Assembly (NCBI GenBank): GCA_963708025.1 | Contig: CAVPSB010000002.1 | Location: 256,001 to 320,000 of the forward strand | From: an uncultured Candidatus Rokubacteria bacterium | Lineage (GTDB): Bacteria > Methylomirabilota > Methylomirabilia > Rokubacteriales > DASRDR01 | Length of the DNA: 64,000 nucleotides | Reading direction: 5' to 3' | Shown here: positions 39,821 through 53,380 of the stretch, in pieces | Position numbering within the stretch: the stretch's first letter is position 1 | Layout: every line of letters begins with the position of its first letter | Position numbers and translations under genes: made by a program | Notes under the pieces: generated by a model | What the model was told of the DNA's origin: nothing | What the model saw: the letters and a program-made list of their open reading frames with translations, nothing else | Databases searched by the model: none

Positions 39821-40189
39821 ATGACTCGATGGCTCGGTGTCGCGGCAGTCGTCGCCCTGCTGGTTGGCGGGCTCGTCTCCCAGGAGGTGGTTGCCCAGCC
39901 GAAGGGTGATCCGGCCAAGGGCGAGGCCCTGTACAAGGCCCGGTGCGTCACCTGTCACGGCGCGGCCGGCGCCGGCGACGGCCCGGCCGGGAAGGTGCTC
40001 AAGGACAAGCCCAAGGACTGGACCAAGGGCGAGGGCCTCAAGGATCTCTCGGACCAGCAGCTCTTCGACGCCATCAAGAAGGGCGGCAAGGCGATCGGCA
40101 AGTCGCCGGCGATGATCGCGTTCCCCAGTCTCTCCGACGCCGAGATCCAGAACGTGATCGCCTACGTCAAGACCCTGACCAAGTCGTGA
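39821..40189 (+). CDS. Monoheme cytochrome c
   Basis: Signal peptide, CVTCHG, GKSPAM. Confidence 0.92.
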   Translation: MTRWLGVAAVVALLVGGLVSQEVVAQPKGDPAKGEALYKARCVTCHGAAGAGDGPAGKVLKDKPKDWTKGEGLKDLSDQQLFDAIKKGGKAIGKSPAMIAFPSLSDAEIQNVIAYVKTLTKS

Positions 40190-40199
40190 CGCGACCGGC

Positions 40200-41384
40200 A
40201 TGACCCGGCATCCGGCGACCGCCCTGGTCGCGGCACTCCTGCTGGCGGGGGCGGCGGCCACCGCCGCCGCCCAGCCGCTGTTCGGCCCGGCCCAGGACCC
40301 GGTCGCCGGCTCCCGGGTCTTCGGCGACAAGGGCTGCGTCAAGTGCCACGCGGTGAACGGGGTGGGCGGGAAGGTCGGCCCCGACCTGGGGCGGCCGCCG
40401 CGTCCGCGCTCGTTCTTCGACCTCGCGGCCGGCATGTGGAATCACCTCCCCCGGATGACGGAGCGCATGCGGGCGCTCGGCGTCGCGCGCCCGCGGCTCG
40501 ACCCGCGCGAGGCCGGGGACCTCATCGCCTTCCTCTTCACCCTCGACTACTTCGACCCGCCCGGCAACCCGCAGGTGGGTCGCCGCCTCTTCCAGCAGAA
40601 GAAGTGCGTCGTCTGTCACCAGGTGGGCGACGTCGGCGGCGTGGTCGGGCCGAGCCTCGACCACCTCAAGCAATACGGCTCGCCGATCTTCGTGGCCGCC
40701 GCCATGTGGAACCACGGGCCGGCGATGACGGAGACGATGCGGGCCCGGGGGATCGAGCGGCCCGTCTTCAAGGACGCCGAGCTGATCGACCTGATCGCCT
40801 ACATCAAGTCGGCCTCGCCGCTCCCGGTGGCGGGCCCGCTGTACGTCCTGCCGGGCCGCGCCGCCGAGGGCCACCGGCTCTTCGTCGAGAAGCGCTGCAG
40901 CGACTGCCACGGGGTCGCCGGGAAGGGCGGCGGGGTCGGCCCCGACCTGGCCGAGCGCGGCGTGCACCGGAGCCTGACCCAGTTCGCGGCCGGGATGTGG
41001 GACAAGGCGCCGGCCATGCTGGCCGCGATGACGGCCCGGGGCATCCCGGTGCCGCAGCTCCGGGCCGAGGAGATGGCCGACATCGTCGCCTACCTCTACG
41101 CCGTGCAGTACTTCGCCGTGCCCGGGGACCGGCAGCGGGGGGCGAGGGTGGCGAAGGACAAGGGCTGCCTCGGCTGCCACACCGTGCTGGCCCGGGACGG
41201 GACGGCGCCGGCGGAGCTGAGCCGGGTCGCCGGCCTGGAGTCCCCGGCGGGGGTCATCGGGGCGCTGTGGAACCATTCGTTCCTCGCCGAGCCCGCGGCC
41301 CGCAAGCGTGGCTGGTCCGCGCTCCGTCCCGACGAGATGGCCGACCTGCTGGCCTTTCTGCGGTCGCTCCGGCCTTCGCCATGA
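40200..41384 (+). CDS. Tetraheme repeat-domain cytochrome c (paralog of 34899)
   Basis: CVKCH, CVVCH, CSDCH, CLGCH; MWNH motifs. Confidence 0.9.
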   Translation: MTRHPATALVAALLLAGAAATAAAQPLFGPAQDPVAGSRVFGDKGCVKCHAVNGVGGKVGPDLGRPPRPRSFFDLAAGMWNHLPRMTERMRALGVARPRLDPREAGDLIAFLFTLDYFDPPGNPQVGRRLFQQKKCVVCHQVGDVGGVVGPSLDHLKQYGSPIFVAAAMWNHGPAMTETMRARGIERPVFKDAELIDLIAYIKSASPLPVAGPLYVLPGRAAEGHRLFVEKRCSDCHGVAGKGGGVGPDLAERGVHRSLTQFAAGMWDKAPAMLAAMTARGIPVPQLRAEEMADIVAYLYAVQYFAVPGDRQRGARVAKDKGCLGCHTVLARDGTAPAELSRVAGLESPAGVIGALWNHSFLAEPAARKRGWSALRPDEMADLLAFLRSLRPSP

Positions 41385-42688: not shown

Positions 42689-43136
42689 CCCGACGGTCGC
42701 GGTCGAGCCGAGCCGGCGGAGCTTCGTCAACTGGTTCCTCGGCACCAGCGCGGGGGCCTTCCTGCTGGCGGTCGCCTATCCCCTGACCCGGTACCTGGTC
42801 CCGCCCCAGGTCGCGGAGTCCACGGCCGGCAGCGTGACCCTCGCGATCGAGGCCGACCAGGTGAAGCCGAACACCGGGCAGATCTTCAAGTTCGGCAGCC
42901 GGCCGGCCATTCTCGTCCGGACGCCGGCCGGGGAGCTGCGGGCCTTCTCGGCCGTGTGCACGCATCTGAACTGCACCGTCCAGTACCGGCCGGACCTCAG
43001 CCACATCTGGTGCGCCTGCCACAACGGCCACTTCGACCTGAGCGGCCGGAACATCGCGGGCCCGCCCCCGCGACCGCTCGACGCGCTGGTCGTCAACGCG
43101 CGGGGCAAGCAGATCGTGGTGAGCAAGGGCGCCTGA
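42678..43136 (+). CDS. Rieske 2Fe-2S subunit of a bc-type complex
   Basis: Tat motif RRSF, CTHLNC, CACHNG, GPPPRPL. Confidence 0.95.
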
Positions 43137-43141
43137 GCCCC

Positions 43142-44245
43142 ATGAGCGCCGGCGTGGTTGGAGCGAAGCACGGCCGCCTCTGGCGCTGGCTCGACGAGCG
43201 CGTCGGGCTGGCCGAGATGGAGAAGCTCGCCCGGAAGAAGCAGGTCCCGGTTCACCGGCACACCATCTGGTACTACTTCGGCGGGATGACCCTCTTCCTG
43301 TTCCTGGTCCAGGTGACGACCGGCATCCTGCTCCTCCTCTACTACCGGCCCAGCGCCGAGGAGGCATACGAGTCGGTGCAGTTCCTGATGACGGAGGTGC
43401 AGTTCGGCTGGCTCGTCCGGTCCATCCACGCGTGGGCGGCAAACCTCATGGTCCTCACCCTCTTCGTCCATCTCTTCAGCGTGCTGCTGCTGGCCGTGTA
43501 CCGCCGGCCCCGCGAGCTCACGTGGGCCTCGGGCGTCGGCCTGATGGGCCTCGCCCTCGGCTTCGGGTTCACGGGATACCTCCTCCCGTGGAACGAGCTG
43601 TCGTACTTCGCGACCAAGGTGGGCACGGAGATCACGGGCGCCGTCCCCCTGGTGGGGGGGTTCCTCCGACGCCTGCTGCGGGGCGGGGACGAGGTGACCG
43701 GCGCCACCCTGACGCGATTCTACGGGATCCACGTCGCCGTCCTTCCGGCGCTGACCACACTGCTCCTCGGCCTCCACCTCTTCCTGGTCCAGAAGCACGG
43801 GATGAGCGTCCCACCCGGCGTGGCGCGGCGGGGCGGGGCCGGGCGGAGCATGCCGTTCTTCCCCAACTTCCTGCTGCGGGACCTCGTGGGCTGGCTCTCG
43901 GCCCTGGCGGTCCTGGCCGCCCTGGCGGCGTACCTCCCGGCCGAGCTGGGCCGGAAGGCCGATCCGTTCGCCGCGGCCCCGGCGGGCATCAAGCCGGAGT
44001 GGTACTTCATGTTCATGTTCCAGACGCTGAAGTACCTCCCGAGCTACATCCTCGGCGTCGAGGGCGAGATCGTCGGGGTCGTCGGCTTCGGCCTCGGGGG
44101 CCTCTTCCTCCTGCTGGTGCCGTTCCTGGATCGACGGGCCGGGCGCGGCGAGCCCAATCGGCTGTTCATCGCGATCGGCCTCGCGATCATCGCCTACATG
44201 CTCGTGCTGACCTACCTCGGCTACGTGGCGAGCCCGACGAAGTGA
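43142..44245 (+). CDS. Cytochrome b of a bc-type complex (N and C parts fused)
   Basis: [40 protein letters not shown]. Confidence 0.95.
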
Positions 44246-44917
44246 CCACGCGAGGACCGCTCGGCGCGCTCCTGCTGGGCGCGACCCTGGGCGCCGCCGT
44301 GCTCGCCGCCGCCGCCCGGGCCGCCGAGCCGCCGGGGGACGCCGGGCGCGGGGCCGCGGTCTTCACGGCGAAGGGCTGCGGGCGCTGCCATCTCCCGAGC
44401 GACCGGGGGCCGGGATGGGGCCGGCCCTCGGCGAGGTCCGGCGACCCCAGGGGATGCTGGAGCTGACCGGCCGGCTGTGGAATCACGCGCCGGCCATGTT
44501 CGCGGCGTTCGAGACAGCAGGGGCTCCCGTGGCCCGGGATGACGCGCGAGGAGATGGCCGACCTGGCCGCCTACCTCCAGGCCGATCCGACCCGCGATCC
44601 CAGGCCGGATCTCTTCCAGGGCCGCGTCACGCTGGTCCGCAAGGGCTGTCTCAAGTGTCACACCCTCCGGGGGGAGGGCGGCTCGGCGGCGATCGAGCTG
44701 TCGACGTATCATGGGCGCTACGAGTCGCCCGTGACCTGGGCCACGACCGTCTGGAACCACGCCCCCCGCATGGCGGCCGTCGCCTCCCGGCTCGAGCGTG
44801 CTCTATCCGCGCTTCTCCGGAGACGAGATGGCGCACCTCTTCCGCTTCCTGCAGAGCGCCGCCGCCACGGCGGGGGCGGATCGGGGGGGTCTTCCGCGAC
44901 CCCCCCGAGGGATCTAG
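44242..44917 (+). CDS. Diheme repeat-domain cytochrome c (about three frameshifts)
   Basis: KGCGRCH...LWNHAPAM and KGCLKCH...VWNHAPRM spread over successive frames. Confidence 0.75.
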
Positions 44918-44919
44918 AC

Positions 44920-45291
44920 GTGGCAACGGCTCGCCGGGTCCGCCTCGTCCTCGCTGCCGGCCTCGCCCTGGCGTCCGGGGTCGCGGCCGGTGTCCTGGCC
45001 GCCGCCCCGGCGGTGCCGCCGGTGACGATCCCGCCCGACTTCGTGCTCCCCAAGGCCGAGAGCAGCCCGGGCCCGGTTCCCTTCAGTCACGCGAAGCACC
45101 TCCCGAAGGTGGAGAAGTGCACCCGGTGCCACATGCGCGGCTTCAAGCTCGGGCTCGGCCAGTCGGGGCCGATCACGCTGGAGGCGCTGATGCAGGGCAA
45201 GTTCTGCGGAGCCTGCCACGACGGGAAGACGACGATGGCGGGGAGCGTCGTCTTCCCGATCGACGCGTGCGACCGGTGCCATCCCTCGTGA
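44920..45291 (+). CDS. c7-type triheme cytochrome
   Basis: FSHAKH, CTRCH, CGACHDGK, CDRCH; signal peptide; GTG start. Confidence 0.88.
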   Translation: MATARRVRLVLAAGLALASGVAAGVLAAAPAVPPVTIPPDFVLPKAESSPGPVPFSHAKHLPKVEKCTRCHMRGFKLGLGQSGPITLEALMQGKFCGACHDGKTTMAGSVVFPIDACDRCHPS

Positions 45292-45319
45292 GCGCGCCCG
45301 TCGCCCCGGGTGAGCCGGC

Positions 45320-46222
45320 ATGACCGAGCCCGAGGAGGGCCAGGTCCGCCGCCGGCCCCATGCTGACCACCGCCGCCGCCGGCTCGTCCTCGTCGTCCTG
45401 GGCGGGCTCCTCGTCGTGGGAGCCGTCGGGCTGGCCGGACTCTGGCAGGTGAGCGCGAGCCCGCAGTTCTGCAATTCGTGCCACATCATGGAGCCCTACG
45501 TCCAGGCCTGGAAGGTCTCCAAGCACGCCGCCGTCGCCTGCGTCGACTGCCACTATCCCCCCGGCCTCCGGGACACGCTGTGGGTGAAGTACCAGGCGAT
45601 CAGCCAGGTCGCGAAGTGGGCGACCCGGACGTACAGCTCCAAGCCCTTCGCGGAGGTCGAGGACGCGAGCTGCCTCCGCTCGGGCTGCCACGCCCTGGCC
45701 CGGCTCGAGAGCAAGGGCCCCGCCGAGTTCAAGCGCGGCGTGCGGTTCGACCACCGCCCGCATCTGGCCGCGGAGAAGATGGGTCGCGCGCTCCGGTGCA
45801 CGAGCTGCCACTCGCAGATCGTGGTGGAGAAGCACTTCGAGGTGGACCAGCGGAGCTGCTTCCTCTGCCACTTCAAGGGCACGAAGCACGGACGGGAGCT
45901 GACCCCGATCGCCGGCTGCACTGGCTGTCACCAGCCGCCGTCGGGTGACATCCTCGTCGGGTCAATCCGGTTCAACCACCAGGAGGTCGTGGGCCGCGGC
46001 GTCGCCTGCGAGAAGTGCCACCTGCGCGTCGTCGAGGGGGACGGGGAGGCGCCCCGCGAGCGGTGCCTCTCCTGCCACAACCAGCCCGAGAAGCTCCAGC
46101 GCTTCGAGGACCGGGCGCTCGTCCACGCCGTCCACGTCGCGCGCCACACGATCGACTGCAGCCGCTGTCACGGCGAGATCCGGCATCGGCTGCCACCCCC
46201 CATCGGGCTCCCGGCGTCATGA
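45320..46222 (+). CDS. Membrane-anchored NapC/NirT-domain multiheme cytochrome (8 CxxCH plus CX4CH)
   Basis: N-terminal TM, SPQFCNSCHIMEPY..W..SKH..VACVDCH, CLRSGCH. Confidence 0.9.
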   Translation: MTEPEEGQVRRRPHADHRRRRLVLVVLGGLLVVGAVGLAGLWQVSASPQFCNSCHIMEPYVQAWKVSKHAAVACVDCHYPPGLRDTLWVKYQAISQVAKWATRTYSSKPFAEVEDASCLRSGCHALARLESKGPAEFKRGVRFDHRPHLAAEKMGRALRCTSCHSQIVVEKHFEVDQRSCFLCHFKGTKHGRELTPIAGCTGCHQPPSGDILVGSIRFNHQEVVGRGVACEKCHLRVVEGDGEAPRERCLSCHNQPEKLQRFEDRALVHAVHVARHTIDCSRCHGEIRHRLPPPIGLPAS

Positions 46223-47556
46223 GGCCCGCCCCCGCGCTCCTCATCCTGATCCTGCTCGCCGCCGCCAGCTCGATCGGCGCCCAGGGCGTGCGCCCGCCCG
46301 AGCCGCCGGGGGCCCGGACCGGGGCCCCGGCGCCGGCGCCTCCGGCGGCGGTCCACCGCCCCGGCGAGCTCGACTGCCAGAACTGTCATCAGGGCAAGCA
46401 CCAGGGCGTGGTGCGGATGTACCTCGGGATGGGCGGGCGGGGAACGCCCATGATCCCGAGCCACATGGTCCAGGTGCGGGTCGAGTGCGCGGCCTGTCAC
46501 ATCGCGCCGAAGGAAGAGGAGCTCTGGGCCGGCATCGTCGGCCAGACGTTCCGGCCGAGCGAGCAGGCGTGCATCGGCTGCCACGGGGAGAAGTATCGCG
46601 GAATGCTGGGGCGGTGGGCGAGCACGCTGGTCCGGATGCAGGAGCTCCTGGCCCCCAAGCTGGCGGCGGCCCGGGGCGCGGTCGGCGCCGGCGACCCGAA
46701 GGACCCGAAGCGGGTGCGCGCGGGCCGGCTCCTGGACGACGCCGAGTTCAACAGCCGCTTCGTCGCGCTGGCCAGAGGCGTGCACAACGTCTTCTATGCC
46801 GCCGACCTGCTGAAGCTCGCGAACGGCTGGGTCGAGGAAGCGGCCGTGCTGGCGGGCAAGCCGGTCGTCCGGGGCGACGACACGCTCATCCGCGGGGGCT
46901 ACTGCGCCGTCCTCTGCCACGAGCAGGCCGGCGTGAAGCTGAAGGACACGGTCACCTTCGCCGACCGGAAGCTGCCGCACGCCCGGCACACGACGGAGTT
47001 CGGCGCGGTGTGCACGAGCTGTCACTCGGCCGAGGTCCACAAGGCGGTGACCGCCACCCCCGCGGCCTGTACCGCCTGTCACCACGGCCCGCAGAACGAC
47101 CGGTGCGAGGGCTGCCACCGCGCCCAGAGCGCCTTCTACCGGGGCCAGGCGCGCACCGACCACGGGCCCGTCGCGCCGAACCTGATGGCGGAGGCCGTGC
47201 CGTGCACCGGCTGTCACGATCTCGCGCGCAAGCACTCGCGAGCGGCGGTCGGGGAGAGGTGCCGGGCTTGCCACGAGCCGCCCTACCTGGCGCTGCTCGG
47301 CGAGTGGACGGTCGGGTTCGACCGGGACGCCGGGCGGGCGACCGCGGCGCTCCAGCGGGCGGAGGCGGCGCTCGCGAGCGCCCGGAAGGCCGGCCGGCCG
47401 ACCGGCGAGGGGGAGGCGCTCGTGAAGGAGGCCCGGCGGGCGCTGGCCCTCGTCCGCGGCGCCCGGGGCGCCCACAACCCGCTGGCCGCCGACGCGCTGC
47501 TCGAGGGCGCCCGGCAGAAGGCCGAGGCGGCGCTGGCGATGGTGGGACGGAAGTGA
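46219..47556 (+). CDS. Periplasmic multiheme cytochrome (8 CxxCH plus CX3CH)
   Basis: Signal peptide; CQNCH...CAVLCH...CRACH; GVHN and GAHN motifs in helical regions. Confidence 0.9.
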   Translation: MRPAPALLILILLAAASSIGAQGVRPPEPPGARTGAPAPAPPAAVHRPGELDCQNCHQGKHQGVVRMYLGMGGRGTPMIPSHMVQVRVECAACHIAPKEEELWAGIVGQTFRPSEQACIGCHGEKYRGMLGRWASTLVRMQELLAPKLAAARGAVGAGDPKDPKRVRAGRLLDDAEFNSRFVALARGVHNVFYAADLLKLANGWVEEAAVLAGKPVVRGDDTLIRGGYCAVLCHEQAGVKLKDTVTFADRKLPHARHTTEFGAVCTSCHSAEVHKAVTATPAACTACHHGPQNDRCEGCHRAQSAFYRGQARTDHGPVAPNLMAEAVPCTGCHDLARKHSRAAVGERCRACHEPPYLALLGEWTVGFDRDAGRATAALQRAEAALASARKAGRPTGEGEALVKEARRALALVRGARGAHNPLAADALLEGARQKAEAALAMVGRK

Positions 47557-48416
47557 GCCGCCGGCGCCGCGAGGAGCGCGCGCGGCAGGAGGCAGCCCTC
47601 CTCCAGGCGGGGCGCCCGCAGTGGCTGGTCGCCGCGCTGAGCGCGGTCGGGCTGGCGGTCGCCGGGTACCTGGCGGTGACGAAGCTCGCGGGCGGCGGCG
47701 CCCTGTTCTGCCGGGGCGTCGGCGGCTGCGAGGTGGTGCAGCAGAGCCGCTACGCGACCTTCCTGGGGCTGCCCACCGCGGCCTGGGGCGCCTTCGTCTA
47801 CGCGGCCGTCGGGGGCCTGGCCCTCGCCGGCCTCGCCCCCTGGCGCTGGCTCGCGGCCTTCGCGCTGGCGGCGGCGGCCGTCGCCTTCTCCGGCTACCTG
47901 ACCTACCTGGAGCTGTTCGTCATCGGGGCGGTCTGCTGGTACTGCGTGGTGTCGGCGGCGACGGCCACGGCGGTCCTGGGCGTGCTGCTCGGGCGCCGGC
48001 CGCCGAGCGGGCGGCACGGCCCGACCGCGCCGGCCCGGGTCGTGGGGGTGGGAGGGGCGTCGGCGCTGGGCGCCGTGGTGCTCGGCATCGCGGTCTTCGC
48101 CGCGACCGCCCCCGGCGGCGCCCCCGGCTACCAGGAAGCCCTCGCCCGCCACCTCGCCCAGAGCGGCGCGGTCATGTACGGCGCCTTCTGGTGACCCGCC
48201 TGCAAGGAGCAAAAGGCCCGGTTCGGGCCTGCCGCCGACCTCCTCCCCTACGTCGAGTGCGACCCGCGCGGATCCGGGGCGCGGCCCGACCTGTGCCAGC
48301 GCGTCGGCGTCCGCGGCTATCCGACCTGGACGGTCGGCGGGGAGCGCCTCGAAGGCGTCCTGTCCCTCGATCGCCTGGCCGAGCTCTCCCGCTACCAGCC
48401 CCCCGCGGGTCACTGA
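47553..48416 (+). CDS. VKOR-thioredoxin-like fusion selenoprotein (Sec at TGA 48192-48194)
   Basis: VKOR C-x5-C..V..SRYA, CWYC; then MYGAFW-TGA-PACKEQKARFG...YVEC...C...GVRGYPTW; hairpin AGGCCCG-GTT-CGGGCCT at 48214-48230. Confidence 0.9.
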
Positions 48417-48526: not shown

Positions 48527-48898
48527 ATGACACGAGGAATCCGTGCGGGAGTCGTCGTGGCCGCCGCCGTTGGCGTGGTGTCCCTGACCGTCGGGTTCGC
48601 GGCCGGCCAGGCCAAGGGGGACGCGAAGGCCGGCGAGCCCGTGTACAAGGCGAAGTGCGTCACCTGTCACGGCGCGGCCGGCAACGGCGACACCCCGGCC
48701 GGGAAGGCGCTGAACCCGAAGCCGCGGGACTGGACGAAGGGCGACGGGCTCGACCTCACCGACCAGCAGCTCTTCGACTCGATCAAGAAGGGGGGCGCGG
48801 CGGTCGGGCGGGGGAAGACGATGATCGCCTTCCCGACCCTGTCGGACACCGAGGTCTGGAATCTCGTCGCCTACGTCAAGTCGCTGAAGAAGTCCTGA
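48527..48898 (+). CDS. Monoheme cytochrome c (paralog of 39821)
   Basis: CVTCHG, DWTKG, MIAFP. Confidence 0.92.
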   Translation: MTRGIRAGVVVAAAVGVVSLTVGFAAGQAKGDAKAGEPVYKAKCVTCHGAAGNGDTPAGKALNPKPRDWTKGDGLDLTDQQLFDSIKKGGAAVGRGKTMIAFPTLSDTEVWNLVAYVKSLKKS

Positions 48899-49071: not shown

Positions 49072-49281
49072 CTACAGCAGTTCCTTGGCGCGGAGGTCCG
49101 CCAGCACCGCACCCGCCAGGAGCGCGAGCGCGACCAGGAAGAGCGCCTGGCCCAGGAACATGAAGATCGTGAAGGCGGTCGGCATGTTCCGCACGAGCAC
49201 GACGAGCGCCATCACGTCGAAGACGGCGGTCAAGAGGATCGCGAGCTGCAGCGCGCGGACGCGGCGTGGCTGTCCGGTCAT
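49072..49281 (-). CDS. Small two-TM membrane protein coupled to the NapC/NirT gene
   Basis: MTGQPRRVRALQLAILL...; ATGA overlap with 49278. Confidence 0.7.
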   Translation of the reverse strand: MTGQPRRVRALQLAILLTAVFDVMALVVLVRNMPTAFTIFMFLGQALFLVALALLAGAVLADLRAKELL

Positions 49282-49982
49282 CGGGAGGCCGCCTGCTTCG
49301 GCTCCGGATGGGCCGGGGCATGACAGCTCAGACAGGGGATCGTGTCGTTCACCATGTTGGGCACCAGCTCTGTTGGGTGTCCCGGCGAGTTGAGGAACTT
49401 CTGCGAGGCCCCGTGGCAGCCCAGGCAGCGCAGGCTCGGGTAGGGGTGCGCGATCTTGATCGGCAGCGTGTACGAGCCGATCAGGGACCGCCACACGTGA
49501 CCGAGGCCCGCCAGCTTCGCACCGAGCGTCCCCGTGAGCCCGTAGTCGGAATGACACGTGTAGCAGTGCTTGTCCTGGATGTACCGGTTCTTGAAGTGCG
49601 TGGCCGCCAGGGTGGCGCTCTGAGGGTTCCGGAGGTCCGCGACGAAGGGGGTCATGACGTGGCAGCCGCCACACGAGTTGACGGTGGACGAGCTCTCCAG
49701 GCCGGAGGCGAACGACAGGAAGGCCACCATCATGGGAACCAGGCCGACGGCCACCAGGAGCCACCCGCGCGCGGTGGGGGTCAGCCCGGACCGGCGCAGG
49801 GTGCGCCAGGCCACCGCGAGCAGCGCCAGGTTGAAGAGTGCGAAGACGATCCCCAGCCCCTGGAGCCACTGGTCGGTCGTCCCGATCCAGCCGCGGGGGA
49901 GGGGAACGGCGTCCTCGGCCGCGACCGCGGCGAGGGGCGCCAGCAGCACTAGGAAGGGGGCGGCCAGGGCGGTCCCGTTCAT
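49278..49982 (-). CDS. Tetraheme NapC/NirT (CymA/NrfH-like) quinol dehydrogenase
   Basis: TM helices then CGGCHVM, CYTCH, CLGCH, CLSCH. Confidence 0.85.
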   Translation of the reverse strand: MNGTALAAPFLVLLAPLAAVAAEDAVPLPRGWIGTTDQWLQGLGIVFALFNLALLAVAWRTLRRSGLTPTARGWLLVAVGLVPMMVAFLSFASGLESSSTVNSCGGCHVMTPFVADLRNPQSATLAATHFKNRYIQDKHCYTCHSDYGLTGTLGAKLAGLGHVWRSLIGSYTLPIKIAHPYPSLRCLGCHGASQKFLNSPGHPTELVPNMVNDTIPCLSCHAPAHPEPKQAASR

Positions 49983-50101
49983 ACGCGCTCCTCCGGAAGT
50001 TCGATCGGTCCCGGGGATTATGGCGGAGCGGCGGCCGGTCTGGCAACTCCCGGCTCCGCGGCTCCCGGGCCTGGGGGTCCCGGGATAGTGCATTTTCCTC
50101 A

Positions 50102-50130
50102 TTGACGCGCCGGGACCCCGGTCCTAGTAT
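50102..50130 (+). promoter_or_regulatory. Sigma70-type promoter for mtrAB
   Basis: TTGACG-N17-TAGTAT. Confidence 0.65.
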
Positions 50131-50184
50131 CGGCACCAATCCAGCGCAGTCGTTCCTCCGACGGAACCAGGGAGGACCCCGAGC

Positions 50185-51141
50185 ATGCGGCGACCAGGCA
50201 GGTCACTTCTCCGGGCCGGCCTTCTCTTCACAGCGGTCTTCCTCGTGGTGGTCGCGCTGGGGTCGTGCGCGCGTACCACGCGTCCCGACCGGGCGGCGCT
50301 CGTGCCGACCGGCCCTCCCGAGGCCTACGTCGGGGCGGAGCTGTGCAAGGCTTGCCACGAGCCGGCGTTCAATCGCTTCGGGCACACCAAGATGGGCCGG
50401 CTCTTCCTGCACCAGCCGCGGAACGACAAGGAGCGCATGGGCTGCGAGAATTGCCACGGCCCCGGCAAGGCCCATGTGGAGGCGGGCGGGACCCAGCCCA
50501 TGCCGGTCGCCTTCACCAAGAAGGGGAAGGAGACCGTCGAGGTCCGCAACGCGGTCTGCCTCCAGTGCCACGAGCGGCTGGCCCGGCTGTTCTGGGACGG
50601 CAGCGCTCACGAGTCGCGCGACCTCGCCTGCACGAACTGCCACCGGGTGATGGAGGACGTCAGCCCGAAGTTCCAGCTCGTCAAGAGCACCGAGCTGGAG
50701 ACGTGCGGGCAGTGCCACCTCGAGAAGCGGGCCGCCCAGATGCGCTCCTCGCACATGCCGCTGCGGGAAGGGAAGATGACCTGCAGCTCGTGCCACAACC
50801 CCCACGGGACGCTCAGCCAGACCCTCCTGAAGGAGAACTCGGTCAACGAGACCTGCTACGTCTGCCACGCCGAGAAGCGGGGCCCGTTCCTGTGGGAGCA
50901 CCCGCCGGTGACGGAGAACTGCGTCAACTGCCACGATCCCCACGGGTCGAACAACGAGAAGATGCTGAAGGTCTCCAAGCCGCGGCTCTGCCAGCAGTGC
51001 CACATCGAGACGCGGCACCCGACGCGCCCCTACGGGACGGACGCGGCGTCCTTCAAGTTCGTCATGGGACGATCGTGCTTGAACTGCCACGCCAACATCC
51101 ACGGCTCCAACCACCCGTCCGGCACGTACTACACCCGATAG
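50185..51141 (+). CDS. mtrA: Decaheme cytochrome c, MtrA/MtoA/PioA/DmsE family
   Basis: Ten CxxCH, CHGPG..H, CHAEKRGPFLWEHPPV.ENC, IHGSNHPSG. Confidence 0.95.
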   Translation: MRRPGRSLLRAGLLFTAVFLVVVALGSCARTTRPDRAALVPTGPPEAYVGAELCKACHEPAFNRFGHTKMGRLFLHQPRNDKERMGCENCHGPGKAHVEAGGTQPMPVAFTKKGKETVEVRNAVCLQCHERLARLFWDGSAHESRDLACTNCHRVMEDVSPKFQLVKSTELETCGQCHLEKRAAQMRSSHMPLREGKMTCSSCHNPHGTLSQTLLKENSVNETCYVCHAEKRGPFLWEHPPVTENCVNCHDPHGSNNEKMLKVSKPRLCQQCHIETRHPTRPYGTDAASFKFVMGRSCLNCHANIHGSNHPSGTYYTR

Positions 51142-51150
51142 GAGGCCGTC

Positions 51151-53380
51151 ATGCGCGCGTCGGGGACGGCACGGCTCATCGTGGCGGCGGCGGGGGCGCT
51201 GGCGCTCTCGGCCATGTCGGATGTCGCGTCGGCGCAGACGTCGATCTTCGGCCTCCAGGTCGACGGGTACGTGGAGCTGGGCGGCCGTGTCTACATCGAC
51301 GAGCCGTCCGACCAGGAGAAGGCGAAGCTGGAGGAGTACCGTGACCTCTCCCAGCAGCCCTTCGGGGCCTTCGGCGTCCGGCTCTTCCGCCCGGACGAGA
51401 GCCTGGCGATCGACCTGGGCGGCTCGAAGATCGGCCAGGACGACCAGGAGTTCTTCCTGGGTGTCGGAAAGCCCGGCCTCTGGCGGTTCGACTTCGACTG
51501 GAACCAGATCCCGCACGTCTACTCGACGAACGCCCGGCTCCTGGCGACCGAGCCGTCGTCCGGCGTCTTCACGCTGCCGACGCCGCGGCCCAACCTGAAC
51601 CTGTACAACGCGGCCCCCCGGCTGGACGAGATCAAGCAGGAGTGGGACGTCGGGACCTTCGGGTTCACGCTGACGCCCGACGCCGGACATCGACATCCTG
51701 GTCGAGTACACGCGGATCAAGAAGGACGGGAACATCCCGTTCGGGATGACGATGGGCAGCCCCGGGAGTAACTTCGTCGAGTTCCTCCAGCCGATCGACC
51801 AGACCATCCACGACGTCCGGGCCAAGGCCTCGTGGGTCGGCGAGGGCTGGCAGGTCCAGGCAGCCTACCAGCTCTCGCTCTTCGAGAACGCCCTCGATTC
51901 CGTGACCTTCGACAATCCCTGCTTCCGCCTGTCGGCGGCGGTGACGGCCGGCGGCTGCGCCGGCGACGGCGCCGGCCCCCAGCGGGGGCAGAGCGCGCAG
52001 CCTCCCGACAACGTCGCCCACACGTTCAGCATCGCCGGCGGCGTCAACCTGCCGATGCGGACCCGGGTGAACGGGAACGTCTCGTACAGCCTTCGCCTCC
52101 AGGACGAAGACTTCCTGCCCCACACGATCAACCCGGCGATCAGGTCACCGCTCCTCGCCCTGCCCAAGCAGAGCCTGGATGGCATGGTGGGCATCTTCCT
52201 CCTGAACCTGAACGCGACGAGCCGGCCGCTGCCGCCGCTCACGCTGACGGGACGCTTCCGCCTGTACGATTTCGACGACATGACCGACGAGATCCTCTTC
52301 CCTGGCCGGGTCGTGGACAACCGCTCCCTGAACACCGACCCGTTCACGGCCGTCCGCTACGACTACACGACGTACGAGGCGGGGCTGGACGGCCGCTGGC
52401 GCTTCAACCCGCAGGTGGCCGGCACCCTTGGTTTCGCCTGGCAACGCTGGGACCGCAACGCGAACCGCGAGGCGCAGCGGAGCGACGAGTACACCGCGAA
52501 GCTGGCGGTTGACACCACGCCGCTCGACTGGCTGCTCGGACGGCTGACCTACCGGCCGTCCTTCCGCCGGATCGGCGATTACAACACCTTCGCCCACCTG
52601 ATCCACGCCGCGACCGAGGAGGACGCCGCGACCGAGGCGCCGGTCAGCCAGTCCGTGCTGCTCCGGAAGTTCGACGAGGCGGACCGCGACCGCCAGCGGG
52701 TCGACCTCCTGCTCCAGTTCACGCCGACCGACGTCATCGCGATCACGCCGACCTTCAGCTACTGGTACGACGACTACTACAACTCGCCGCTCGGGCTCCA
52801 GAGCTCGGAGAACTACTCGGTCGGGATCGACGTGACCTGGAGCCCCTTCCCCTGGCTGGCCCTGACCGCCGGGTACGTCTACGAGCGGCTCGACCAGCAG
52901 CAGCGCTCGCAGAGCCGGGAGGTGGTCGGGGGGGTGACGTTCGAGCCCCCGGACTTCATCTGGAAATCCGACAACGTCGATACGTACAACACCGTGCACG
53001 CGAGCCTGAAGGCCACGCTGATCCCCGAGGTCCTGGACTGGTACCTGTACGTGAACTTCTCGATGGGCGACGGGGAGATCAAGACCTCGAACCCGATCCC
53101 GCCCCGGAGCGGCAACGCGTCCCAGAACTCCAACGCGACCGCCAAGCCGTTCCCCGACCTGGAGAACACCCTCGTCCAGGTGGGGACGACCTTCCGCTAC
53201 CGCTTCGCGAAGGCCTGGAGCTTCGCGCTCAGCTACCTCTTCGAGCAGTTCGACGAGACGAACTTCCGGACCGACGCGCTGAAGCCCTTCCAGACCCAGA
53301 CGTCCTCCATCTACCTCGGCAACGACCTCAAGGACTACACCGCGCACATCATCACGCTGGCGCTGGCGTACCGCTTCTAG
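51151..53380 (+). CDS. mtrB: MtrB/PioB family outer-membrane beta-barrel; frameshift near 51678
   Basis: KLEEYRDL, PIDQT, F.NPC...C, PPDN.AH, LRKFDEADRDR, C-terminal YRF; directly downstream of the decaheme gene. Confidence 0.92.

Follow-up and report, generated by a model that had tools for sequence, protein, structure and literature searches.

The DNA analysed here (hereafter, the window) is a stretch of 64,000 nucleotides (nt) from an uncultured Candidatus Rokubacteria bacterium (GenBank assembly GCA_963708025.1, contig CAVPSB010000002.1, positions 256,001 to 320,000 of the forward strand). It carries a gene in which a vitamin K epoxide reductase (VKOR) domain is fused to a thioredoxin (Trx)-like domain, and in which the reading frame meets one TGA at the first redox position of the Trx-like motif. 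With a probability of about 0.88, we consider this gene to encode one 287-residue selenoprotein, in which UGA would be decoded as selenocysteine (Sec) through a Sec insertion sequence (SECIS), and which would, by homology, serve as a quinone-linked periplasmic thiol oxidase. The features of the gene, including its fifth transmembrane helix and the helix assignment in the AlphaFold2 (AF2) model, are listed below.

47553..48416, plus strand: the whole VKOR-Trx gene, 287 codons and a stop, with a single internal UGA; VKOR domain, fifth transmembrane helix and Trx-like domain
47622..47981, plus strand: VKOR core, residues 24-143 (Pfam PF07884)
47709-47711 and 47727-47729, plus strand: loop cysteines C53 and C59, invariant in alignment A1
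47934-47945, plus strand: VKOR active site C128-W-Y-C131, both Cys invariant in alignment A1
48030..48104, plus strand: fifth transmembrane helix, residues 160-184, a helix in the AF2 model; architecture as in 3kp9
48123..48401, plus strand: Trx-like domain, residues ~191-283, with U214-P-A-C217 and a second Cys pair, C236/C248 (match to PDB 3kp8_A)
48192..48194, plus strand: UGA, probably read as Sec (residue 214, which opens the Trx motif U-P-A-C), aligned with Cys209 of 3kp9
48214..48230, plus strand: hairpin AGGCCCG-GTT-CGGGCCT, the putative SECIS; conserved core at 48215-48229, GGCCCG-GUU-CGGGYC

The start codon, GTG 47553, overlaps the stop codon of the upstream octaheme cytochrome gene as GTGA, and the same start was used in the database gene call (P0002). 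TGA 48192-48194 is codon 214 and the sole interruption of the frame (context ...AVMYGAFW-U-PAC-KEQKARFG...). Beyond it, the frame is open for 73 more codons and ends at TGA 48414-48416, with YVECD and GYPTW in the tail; with TGA translated as U, the product has 287 residues.

Pfam VKOR matched residues 24-143 (E = 8.5e-26; 91.1 bits, cut-off 27.5). The Pfam Thioredoxin match was weak (E = 0.048), and Pfam gave no DsbA domain (PF01323). In NCBIfam, no selenoprotein model matched the protein, and the VKOR models were below their own cut-offs. In the PDB sequence search, 3kp9_A was matched along the whole chain (query 13-283 to 11-279; E = 7.9e-46), and the Trx-like domain alone matched 3kp8_A (E = 3.8e-24). 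In the alignment to 3kp9, U214 corresponds to Cys209 of WCPHC, C53 and C59 to the loop positions 50 and 56, and C128 and C131 to Cys130 and Cys133. The AF2 model, for which the input alignment contained 11 sequences, has five long helices and a Trx-like fold (mean predicted local distance difference test score, 90; predicted template modelling score, 0.81). With Foldseek against PDB, the top matches of the model were 4nv5, 4nv6, 4nv2, and 3kp9 (Synechococcus VKOR; template modelling score, 0.62-0.72), and the next one was 3kp8 (target score, 0.89). In alignment A1, no variation occurs at the Sec position (C214) or in the columns of C53, C59, C128, C131, C217, C236, and C248, and S65, corresponding to the Ser/Thr feature of VKOR, is at least 90% conserved. 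The family features given in PMC4555120 are a loop Cys pair, a conserved Ser/Thr, and a CxxC in the fourth helix. The gene fits the VKOR family and the Synechococcus-type fusion architecture; the predicted topology, with the fifth helix, would place the Trx-like domain on the periplasmic side. An earlier note on this DNA, made from its letters without database searches, had read the gene as a VKOR-thioredoxin fusion with W-U-P-A-C, had matched the TGA with the leading Cys in WCPHC, and had described the 73-codon continuation with KEQKARFG, YVEC, and GYPTW. The fusion is supported by the Pfam VKOR match, the whole-length 3kp9 match, and the Trx fold in the model; the position of the TGA agrees with the alignment to 3KP9 and to cyanobacterial and other homologues; and the continuation lies where it was reported.

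The conservation of the TGA was analysed by searching the read-through protein against 251 genomes of the phylum of the window (E<=1e-20), and the class counts were tallied by hand from the match table. A match was obtained in 90 of the 251 genomes. Near full-length matches with one in-frame TGA were found in 45 genomes (the window's own included), and three more partial matches holding the TGA added two genomes, giving 47 of 251 with the TGA; 33 full-length rows and four more distant rows (38-40% identity) had no internal TGA. In the phylum tallies, the unpublished genomes G038, G094, and G132 account for two selA rows, for one partial row with a weak match, and for one row of a distant Cys form; the claims on the Sec form are independent of them. 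The DNA of 70 loci was read, and 66 of them were aligned across residue 214. As counted by script, U-P-A-C occurred in 44 rows (one row being a duplicate locus, when both motifs are taken together) and U-P-V-C in two rows; L063, which the script missed and which was read as protein only, has F-T-U-P-V-C. In all 46 distinct TGA-form loci, the TGA is at the first redox position, within U-P-A/V-C. The same column is occupied by Cys in 18 loci, with the motifs CPHC (13 rows, one of them a duplicate), CPAC (two rows, and L080 and L081), CSAC (one), and CPVC (one).

The TGA might be a true stop, in which case the product would be a 213-residue VKOR with five helices and without the Trx domain, and the 73 downstream codons would either be a remnant in decay or be translated as a piece of their own. 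In line with this, gene callers and public databases list stumps of ~189-218 amino acids, and VKOR with a fifth helix and without the Trx domain is known in other phyla, according to PMC4555120. Against it, 43 of 45 loci have an open frame of 69-78 codons past the TGA (of the other two, one leaves its contig and one contains a run of N) in relatives whose proteins are 49-70% identical to that of the window, and the conservation of the columns downstream of the TGA by codon position is 0.80/0.84/0.59, which is a coding signature. C217, YVECD, and PTW are invariant beyond the TGA, a start codon is absent after it, and 46 loci have the TGA at one and the same codon. In the AF2 model, a chain ending at TGA 48192 would break off within the Trx fold, after strand 1 and before the active-site helix, and would lack the first redox residue of the Trx motif. 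We therefore regard a true stop as highly improbable.

Another possibility was that TGC or TGT had become TGA in this bin only, through a recent nonsense mutation or an error in sequencing or assembly. Apart from the origin of the genome as a metagenome bin, nothing favors it, and it is refuted by the same TGA in the 47 genomes and in DNA from other runs. For the latter, contigs (contigs only) of four DNA runs from four studies were compared to the window at a likeness of at least 88%. The TGA is spanned with at least 31 nt on each side by contigs of three other metagenome runs (X2 record 15, X3 record 20, and X4 record 32). No letter differed at 48192-48194 or at 48214-48229 in the contigs of other runs, and the differences were at 48182, 48185, 48204-48206, 48212, 48230, 48233, and 48236; synonymous sites near the TGA differ in contigs that bridge the unchanged TGA.

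The hairpin starts 19 nt past TGA 48192-48194, and its loop begins 26 nt past the TGA. The 64-kb window contains 18 perfect hairpins of 7 base pairs (bp) with a 3-nt loop, an expectation of ~0.008 per 30-nt span, so that a chance occurrence here is of low probability. Among relatives, only the inner 6 bp (48215-48229) are kept, and the outer A-U pair is not conserved, since 48230 varies. The sequence GGCCCGGTTCGGG is unchanged in 44 of 45 TGA forms. The single TGA form with a change in the hairpin is L051 (G092), in which CGG is changed to CAG (Arg to Gln) and the closing G-C pair is lost; a 5-nt loop on a 5-bp stem would be left in this locus. The third positions of codons +7 to +11 (AAG GCC CGG TTC GGG) are 100% invariant, against 0.33-0.87 in the flanking codons, and the single variable position of the stem pairs as G-C or G-U. 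The Gly codon within the hairpin is always GGG in the TGA forms, and GGC prevails in the Cys forms, which mostly have GCG CTS TTC GGC at the site, so that the hairpin cannot form. It is missing from 16 of 17 Cys forms inspected at the DNA level (the exception, L099, is described below). In the whole genome, GGCCCGGTTCGGG was found three times, and only the VKOR copy is downstream of an in-frame TGA of a recognisable gene.

In the model of the bacterial SECIS (bSECIS) given in the Fig. 2 legend of PMC13188914, the apical loop is 3-9 nt, the upper stem is 4-16 bp, G is present in the first two loop positions, the distance from UGA to the loop is 16-37 nt, and the minimum free energy is <= -7.5 kcal/mol. 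The hairpin of the window has a loop of 3 nt (GUU, G then U first), a stem of 6-7 bp, a distance from UGA to the loop of 26 nt, and -15.1 kcal/mol, and it satisfies all of these published values. The earlier note had proposed a perfect 7-bp hairpin with a loop G, 19 nt downstream, as a bacterial SECIS; it is present and agrees with the published bSECIS model, but its conserved part is the inner 6 bp and does not include the outer A-U pair. As a separate observation, the Gln codon before the hairpin (48210-48212) is CAA in 84% of the TGA forms and CAG in 16 of 16 Cys forms, and this rare CAA may be a hint that the signal includes the A-rich run GCAAAAGG.

The genome (8.17 Mb, 49 contigs, 99.7% completeness) contains selA, selB, selC, and selD. 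selA is on contig C32 (512 bits with Pfam; 597.8 bits with TIGR00474), a SelB winged-helix domain (76.2 bits) is 2 kb from it, and tRNA-Sec (selC; anticodon tca) is likewise on C32; selD (398 bits) is on C7. The GC content of the contigs with the Sec machinery is 0.71-0.72, the same as that of the contig of the window. selD on C7 (C7:91381-92304) contains one in-frame TGA (...GAG-U-ACK...) and would itself be a selenoprotein, with a downstream hairpin unlike that of the VKOR gene, and a second selD-like match (C23:88505-89419) lies in an 833-codon open frame, possibly as a fusion. In the phylum, 215 of 251 genomes have a selA match, as do 43 of the 47 genomes with the TGA form. The use of selA as a discriminator between Sec-form and Cys-form genomes was rejected on these counts; most Cys-form genomes have selA, which is thus a necessary background and not a discriminator. 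The earlier note had suggested looking for the sel genes, for TGC or TGT in other DNA, and for TGA in homologues: the four genes are in the genome, the bridging contigs of other metagenomes have TGA, and 47 of 251 genomes carry it, at the same site in all 46 loci.

With the machinery in place, the residue inserted at the UGA has to be considered. In some systems, selenium shortage can lead to the insertion of Cys at Sec codons, which speaks for a read-through with another residue, for example, Cys or Trp by near-cognate suppression or by a mischarged tRNA-Sec, the hairpin merely slowing termination. Such a read-through is, in our view, very unlikely. The Sec/Cys pair at a redox-active position is a classic selenoprotein signature, the Sec machinery is complete, and the hairpin fits the SelB-type bSECIS model. 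Moreover, the TGA-form genes themselves end with TGA (28), TAG (14), or TAA (2); since TGA still ends 28 of these 44 genes, it is not reassigned genome-wide, and a general read-through is unlikely. Judged from these sequence comparisons, the decoding of UGA 48192 as Sec is very probable.

The distribution of the Sec form was also surveyed beyond the phylum. The protein search gave 316 matches among 8000 scored candidates, in two length classes: stumps of ~189-218 amino acids ending with ...YGAFW, by which 61-74% of the query was covered, and full-length Cys forms of 261-326 amino acids. Where they have names, the stumps appear as 'vitamin K epoxide reductase family protein [Methylomirabilota bacterium]' or 'uncharacterized membrane protein'. 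Among the best 80 of 599 stretches from a scan of species-representative genomes, the motif was located in 79, with nine TGA forms and 70 Cys forms, numbers that lean to the Cys forms because one of the two scan patterns included the Cys motif. All nine TGA forms have the same hairpin, and their titles are Candidatus Rokubacteria, Methylomirabilis, Methylomirabilota, and uncultured bacterium, with one each of Thermodesulfobacteriota and Kiloniellaceae. The Cys forms are from Acidobacteriota, Binatia, 'delta proteobacterium', cyanobacteria, Pseudomonas, Chloroflexota, and others. The TGA forms in the databases stand as stumps of ~213 amino acids, which is an annotation error, and a Sec-flagged profile would mend dozens of Methylomirabilota gene models.

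A quick maximum likelihood tree was reconstructed with 59 rows (44 Sec, 15 Cys). The Cys forms are several clades nested among the Sec forms, and five label changes are needed in this tree, of which the well-supported branches force only one Sec/Cys change. L099, a Cys form (W-C-A-H-C; match 1501-2342), retains the exact hairpin GGCCCGGTTCGGGTC, an apparent fossil SECIS, which points to a Sec-to-Cys change in the L099 lineage. The frame of L099 is seemingly disturbed past YVECDPK. Close Sec and Cys forms, L099 among them, offer a natural experiment on what Sec buys in thiol-disulfide exchange.

The proposed mechanism follows the Synechococcus enzyme, for which PMC3800646 describes the transfer of electrons from the substrate to Cys209-Cys212 of the Trx-like domain, to the loop Cys50/Cys56, to Cys130-Cys133, and to quinone. 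In the protein of the window, SelB with Sec-tRNA(Sec) would be recruited by the hairpin GGCCCG-GUU-CGGGYC during translation, UGA 48192 would be read as Sec, and the Trx-like domain would then be completed. If it works like its Synechococcus homologue, the protein would be the equivalent of DsbB and DsbA in one chain: the exposed Sec214, paired with Cys217, would attack substrate cysteines and take up their electrons, would be resolved by the VKOR loop, and the electrons would pass from the loop C53/C59 to C128/C131 and on to the membrane quinone. The substrates may include proteins of the neighboring multiheme cytochrome and porin-cytochrome cluster, and Sec would presumably speed the thiol-selenylsulfide exchange. 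That the enzyme acts as an oxidase, as in Synechococcus, we hold to be somewhat probable.

Compared with the Synechococcus VKOR-Trx (3KP9, 4NV2, 4NV5, and 4NV6; Trx domain, 3KP8), the protein of the window is alike in the whole-length architecture (36% identity), the loop Cys pair, the helix-4 CxxC, the fifth helix, the Trx-like domain at the C-terminus, and the place of the redox motif. The Synechococcus enzyme has Cys209 in C-P-H-C, whereas the window has UGA (Sec) in U-P-A-C; unlike in Synechococcus, the gene has a putative SECIS embedded in the K-A-R-F-G codons, its host is a non-photosynthetic bacterium of the Methylomirabilota type, and it lies in a multiheme cytochrome cluster. The bacterial UxxC Trx-fold selenoproteins (Trx, DsbA-like form 1, DsbG-like, and thiol:disulfide interchange protein; Table 1 of PMC13188914) are alike in having Sec for the first Cys of CxxC, Sec/Cys homologue pairs, and a SECIS just downstream inside the coding region. 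They are soluble or lipid-anchored single-domain proteins, whereas in the window the Trx domain and its membrane quinone reductase (VKOR) form one chain. The DsbB-DsbA system of Escherichia coli would be alike in the route from thiols to a Trx-fold CxxC, to two Cys pairs of a four-helix membrane protein, and to quinone (as given in PMC4555120), but it consists of two separate proteins without selenium, and no sequence homology was found by the searches made here.

Several points weigh against the selenoprotein oxidase proposed above. The oxidase function would be a transfer from a cyanobacterial enzyme of 36% identity, and the insertion of selenium into the protein is deduced from DNA. Compensatory base changes that would prove the structure are absent among the TGA forms, the hairpin being invariant, and hence it has no support from covariation. 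The peptide K-A-R-F-G is present in some Cys forms (P0012, P0016, P0021, P0024, and P0030), so that part of the nucleotide conservation may be a protein constraint. The folding energy of 48186-48260 (75 nt) is no better than that of shuffled sequences (z = 0.33), and in DNA of 71% GC with such a z value, the folding energy alone is no evidence; Rfam gave no match for the whole window at the gathering threshold or for 48150-48300 at E<=10. The genome is a bin with 8.2% contamination, and selA was not found in four of the 47 TGA-form genomes (G229, G163, G032, and G024; 81-95% complete). No RNA run was among the listed holders of the stretch, the best run carrying 0.34 of the sampled words.

As for novelty, the 119 families and subfamilies of prokaryotic selenoproteins tabulated in PMC13188914 (a 2026 review; Table 1) include no VKOR entry. 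Neither 'VKOR' nor 'vitamin K' appears in the main text of this review or in the main texts of PMC9312934, a review of 2022, and PMC12013277, the deep-Sep paper, and 'selenocysteine' is absent from the VKOR phylogeny paper PMC4555120. A bacterial VKOR selenoprotein was not found in the literature searched, and the candidate lists of Deng et al. 2026 (Cell Rep) and of Haft and Tolstoy 2025 may include the family; according to the part of PMC13188914 that cites Deng et al. 2026, a Methylomirabilota bin was predicted to have 63 selenoprotein genes. If the proposal is true, selenium would have a place in the membrane system for protein disulfide formation, a step at which no selenoprotein is catalogued in the 119-family table of PMC13188914. 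This is a well-supported selenoprotein family that was not found catalogued, and it involves no new principle. Among bacterial selenoproteins, those with an exchange of Sec and Cys at the leading residue of a Trx-fold CxxC are the commonest kind.

The genes around VKOR-Trx in the window include the following.

40179-41381: c-type cytochrome
42689-44242, plus strand: cytochrome b
44467-45288: multiheme cytochrome
45314-46219: multiheme cytochrome, NapC/NirT-like
46015..47556, plus strand: octaheme c-type cytochrome directly upstream of VKOR-Trx, with 8 CxxCH (Pfam cytochrome c7/c3 families)
48527-48895: mono-heme cytochrome c
49281-50102, minus strand: NapC/NirT-like cytochrome
50128-51138: DmsE-family decaheme cytochrome (262.6 bits, above the cut-off)
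51142-53377, plus strand: MtrB/PioB porin

The location amid multiheme cytochrome genes, as had been pointed out before from the letters, is confirmed, with the octaheme gene directly upstream. An open reading frame (ORF) with at least four CxxCH was found within 1.5 kb at 16 of 30 TGA-form loci versus 0 of 15 Cys-form loci; the compared loci are from related genomes, and this contrast is thus a lead and not a statistic. Orthologues of the octaheme cytochrome (59-70% identity) are directly upstream on the same strand at 10 of the 30 TGA-form loci (including the window's own), and orthologues of the decaheme cytochrome (53-71% identity) adjoin VKOR-Trx in six loci. The further suggestion of the earlier note, that the role of VKOR-Trx may be tied to the multiheme operon, has the support of gene neighborhood. 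At some TGA-form loci (e.g., L051 and L058), an octaheme ORF is present on both sides of VKOR-Trx.

A rival reading concerns the direction of the reaction. With the decoding as Sec accepted, the Trx domain could take electrons from a low-potential quinol through VKOR and reduce or reshuffle periplasmic disulfides, for example, to keep the CxxCH of apocytochromes reduced for heme attachment in the neighboring multiheme cytochromes. The multiheme neighbors found with the TGA form and not with the Cys form (16/30 and 0/15) and the conserved orthologous octaheme and DmsE-like decaheme neighbors are in favor of such a reductase or isomerase. Selenolate is a better nucleophile and a better leaving group than thiolate, so that a faster exchange, and possibly a less oxidising couple, is expected. 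The redox potential of a selenylsulfide is lower than that of a disulfide, which suits a reductase or isomerase rather than a strong oxidant. On the other side, the solved homologue acts as an oxidase (PMC3800646), it has all four VKOR cysteines and the layout of the motifs in common with the protein of the window, and the association with multiheme genes, drawn from related genomes, is not statistically independent. Given the possibly less oxidising couple, the Sec form may oxidise, reduce, or isomerise its clients; we regard the reverse direction or isomerase role as unlikely and the oxidase role as somewhat probable.

A more speculative proposal, which we consider doubtful, is that the Sec form is a dedicated selenium-dependent redox partner of an octaheme cytochrome and of a porin-cytochrome conduit of the DmsE/MtrB type in Methylomirabilota and no general substitute for DsbA/DsbB. 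A quinone-linked selenol/thiol relay would then mature or gate the extracellular electron-transfer machinery, and lineages in which this link was lost would have replaced Sec by Cys. The conserved link with octaheme and decaheme cytochromes suggests a testable connection between selenium and cytochrome-based electron transfer.

Two of the neighboring genes showed further peculiarities. The MtrB/PioB porin gene is in two frames, of which 51142-51768 corresponds to positions 4-129 of the profile and 51674-53377 to positions 128-635, with the junction near 51680-51690; the split could be due to a frameshift, an assembly error, or recoding. The same region has a sub-threshold NCBIfam match to the GSU2204 (seleno)protein family. 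In the cytochrome b (42689-44242), the family matches begin at approximately residue 163-190, which leaves an unexplained N-terminal extension, and, cytochrome b6 apart, its best-scoring named relative is ExtP, which belongs to the selenite/tellurite reduction operon (213 bits, below the cut-off of 290).

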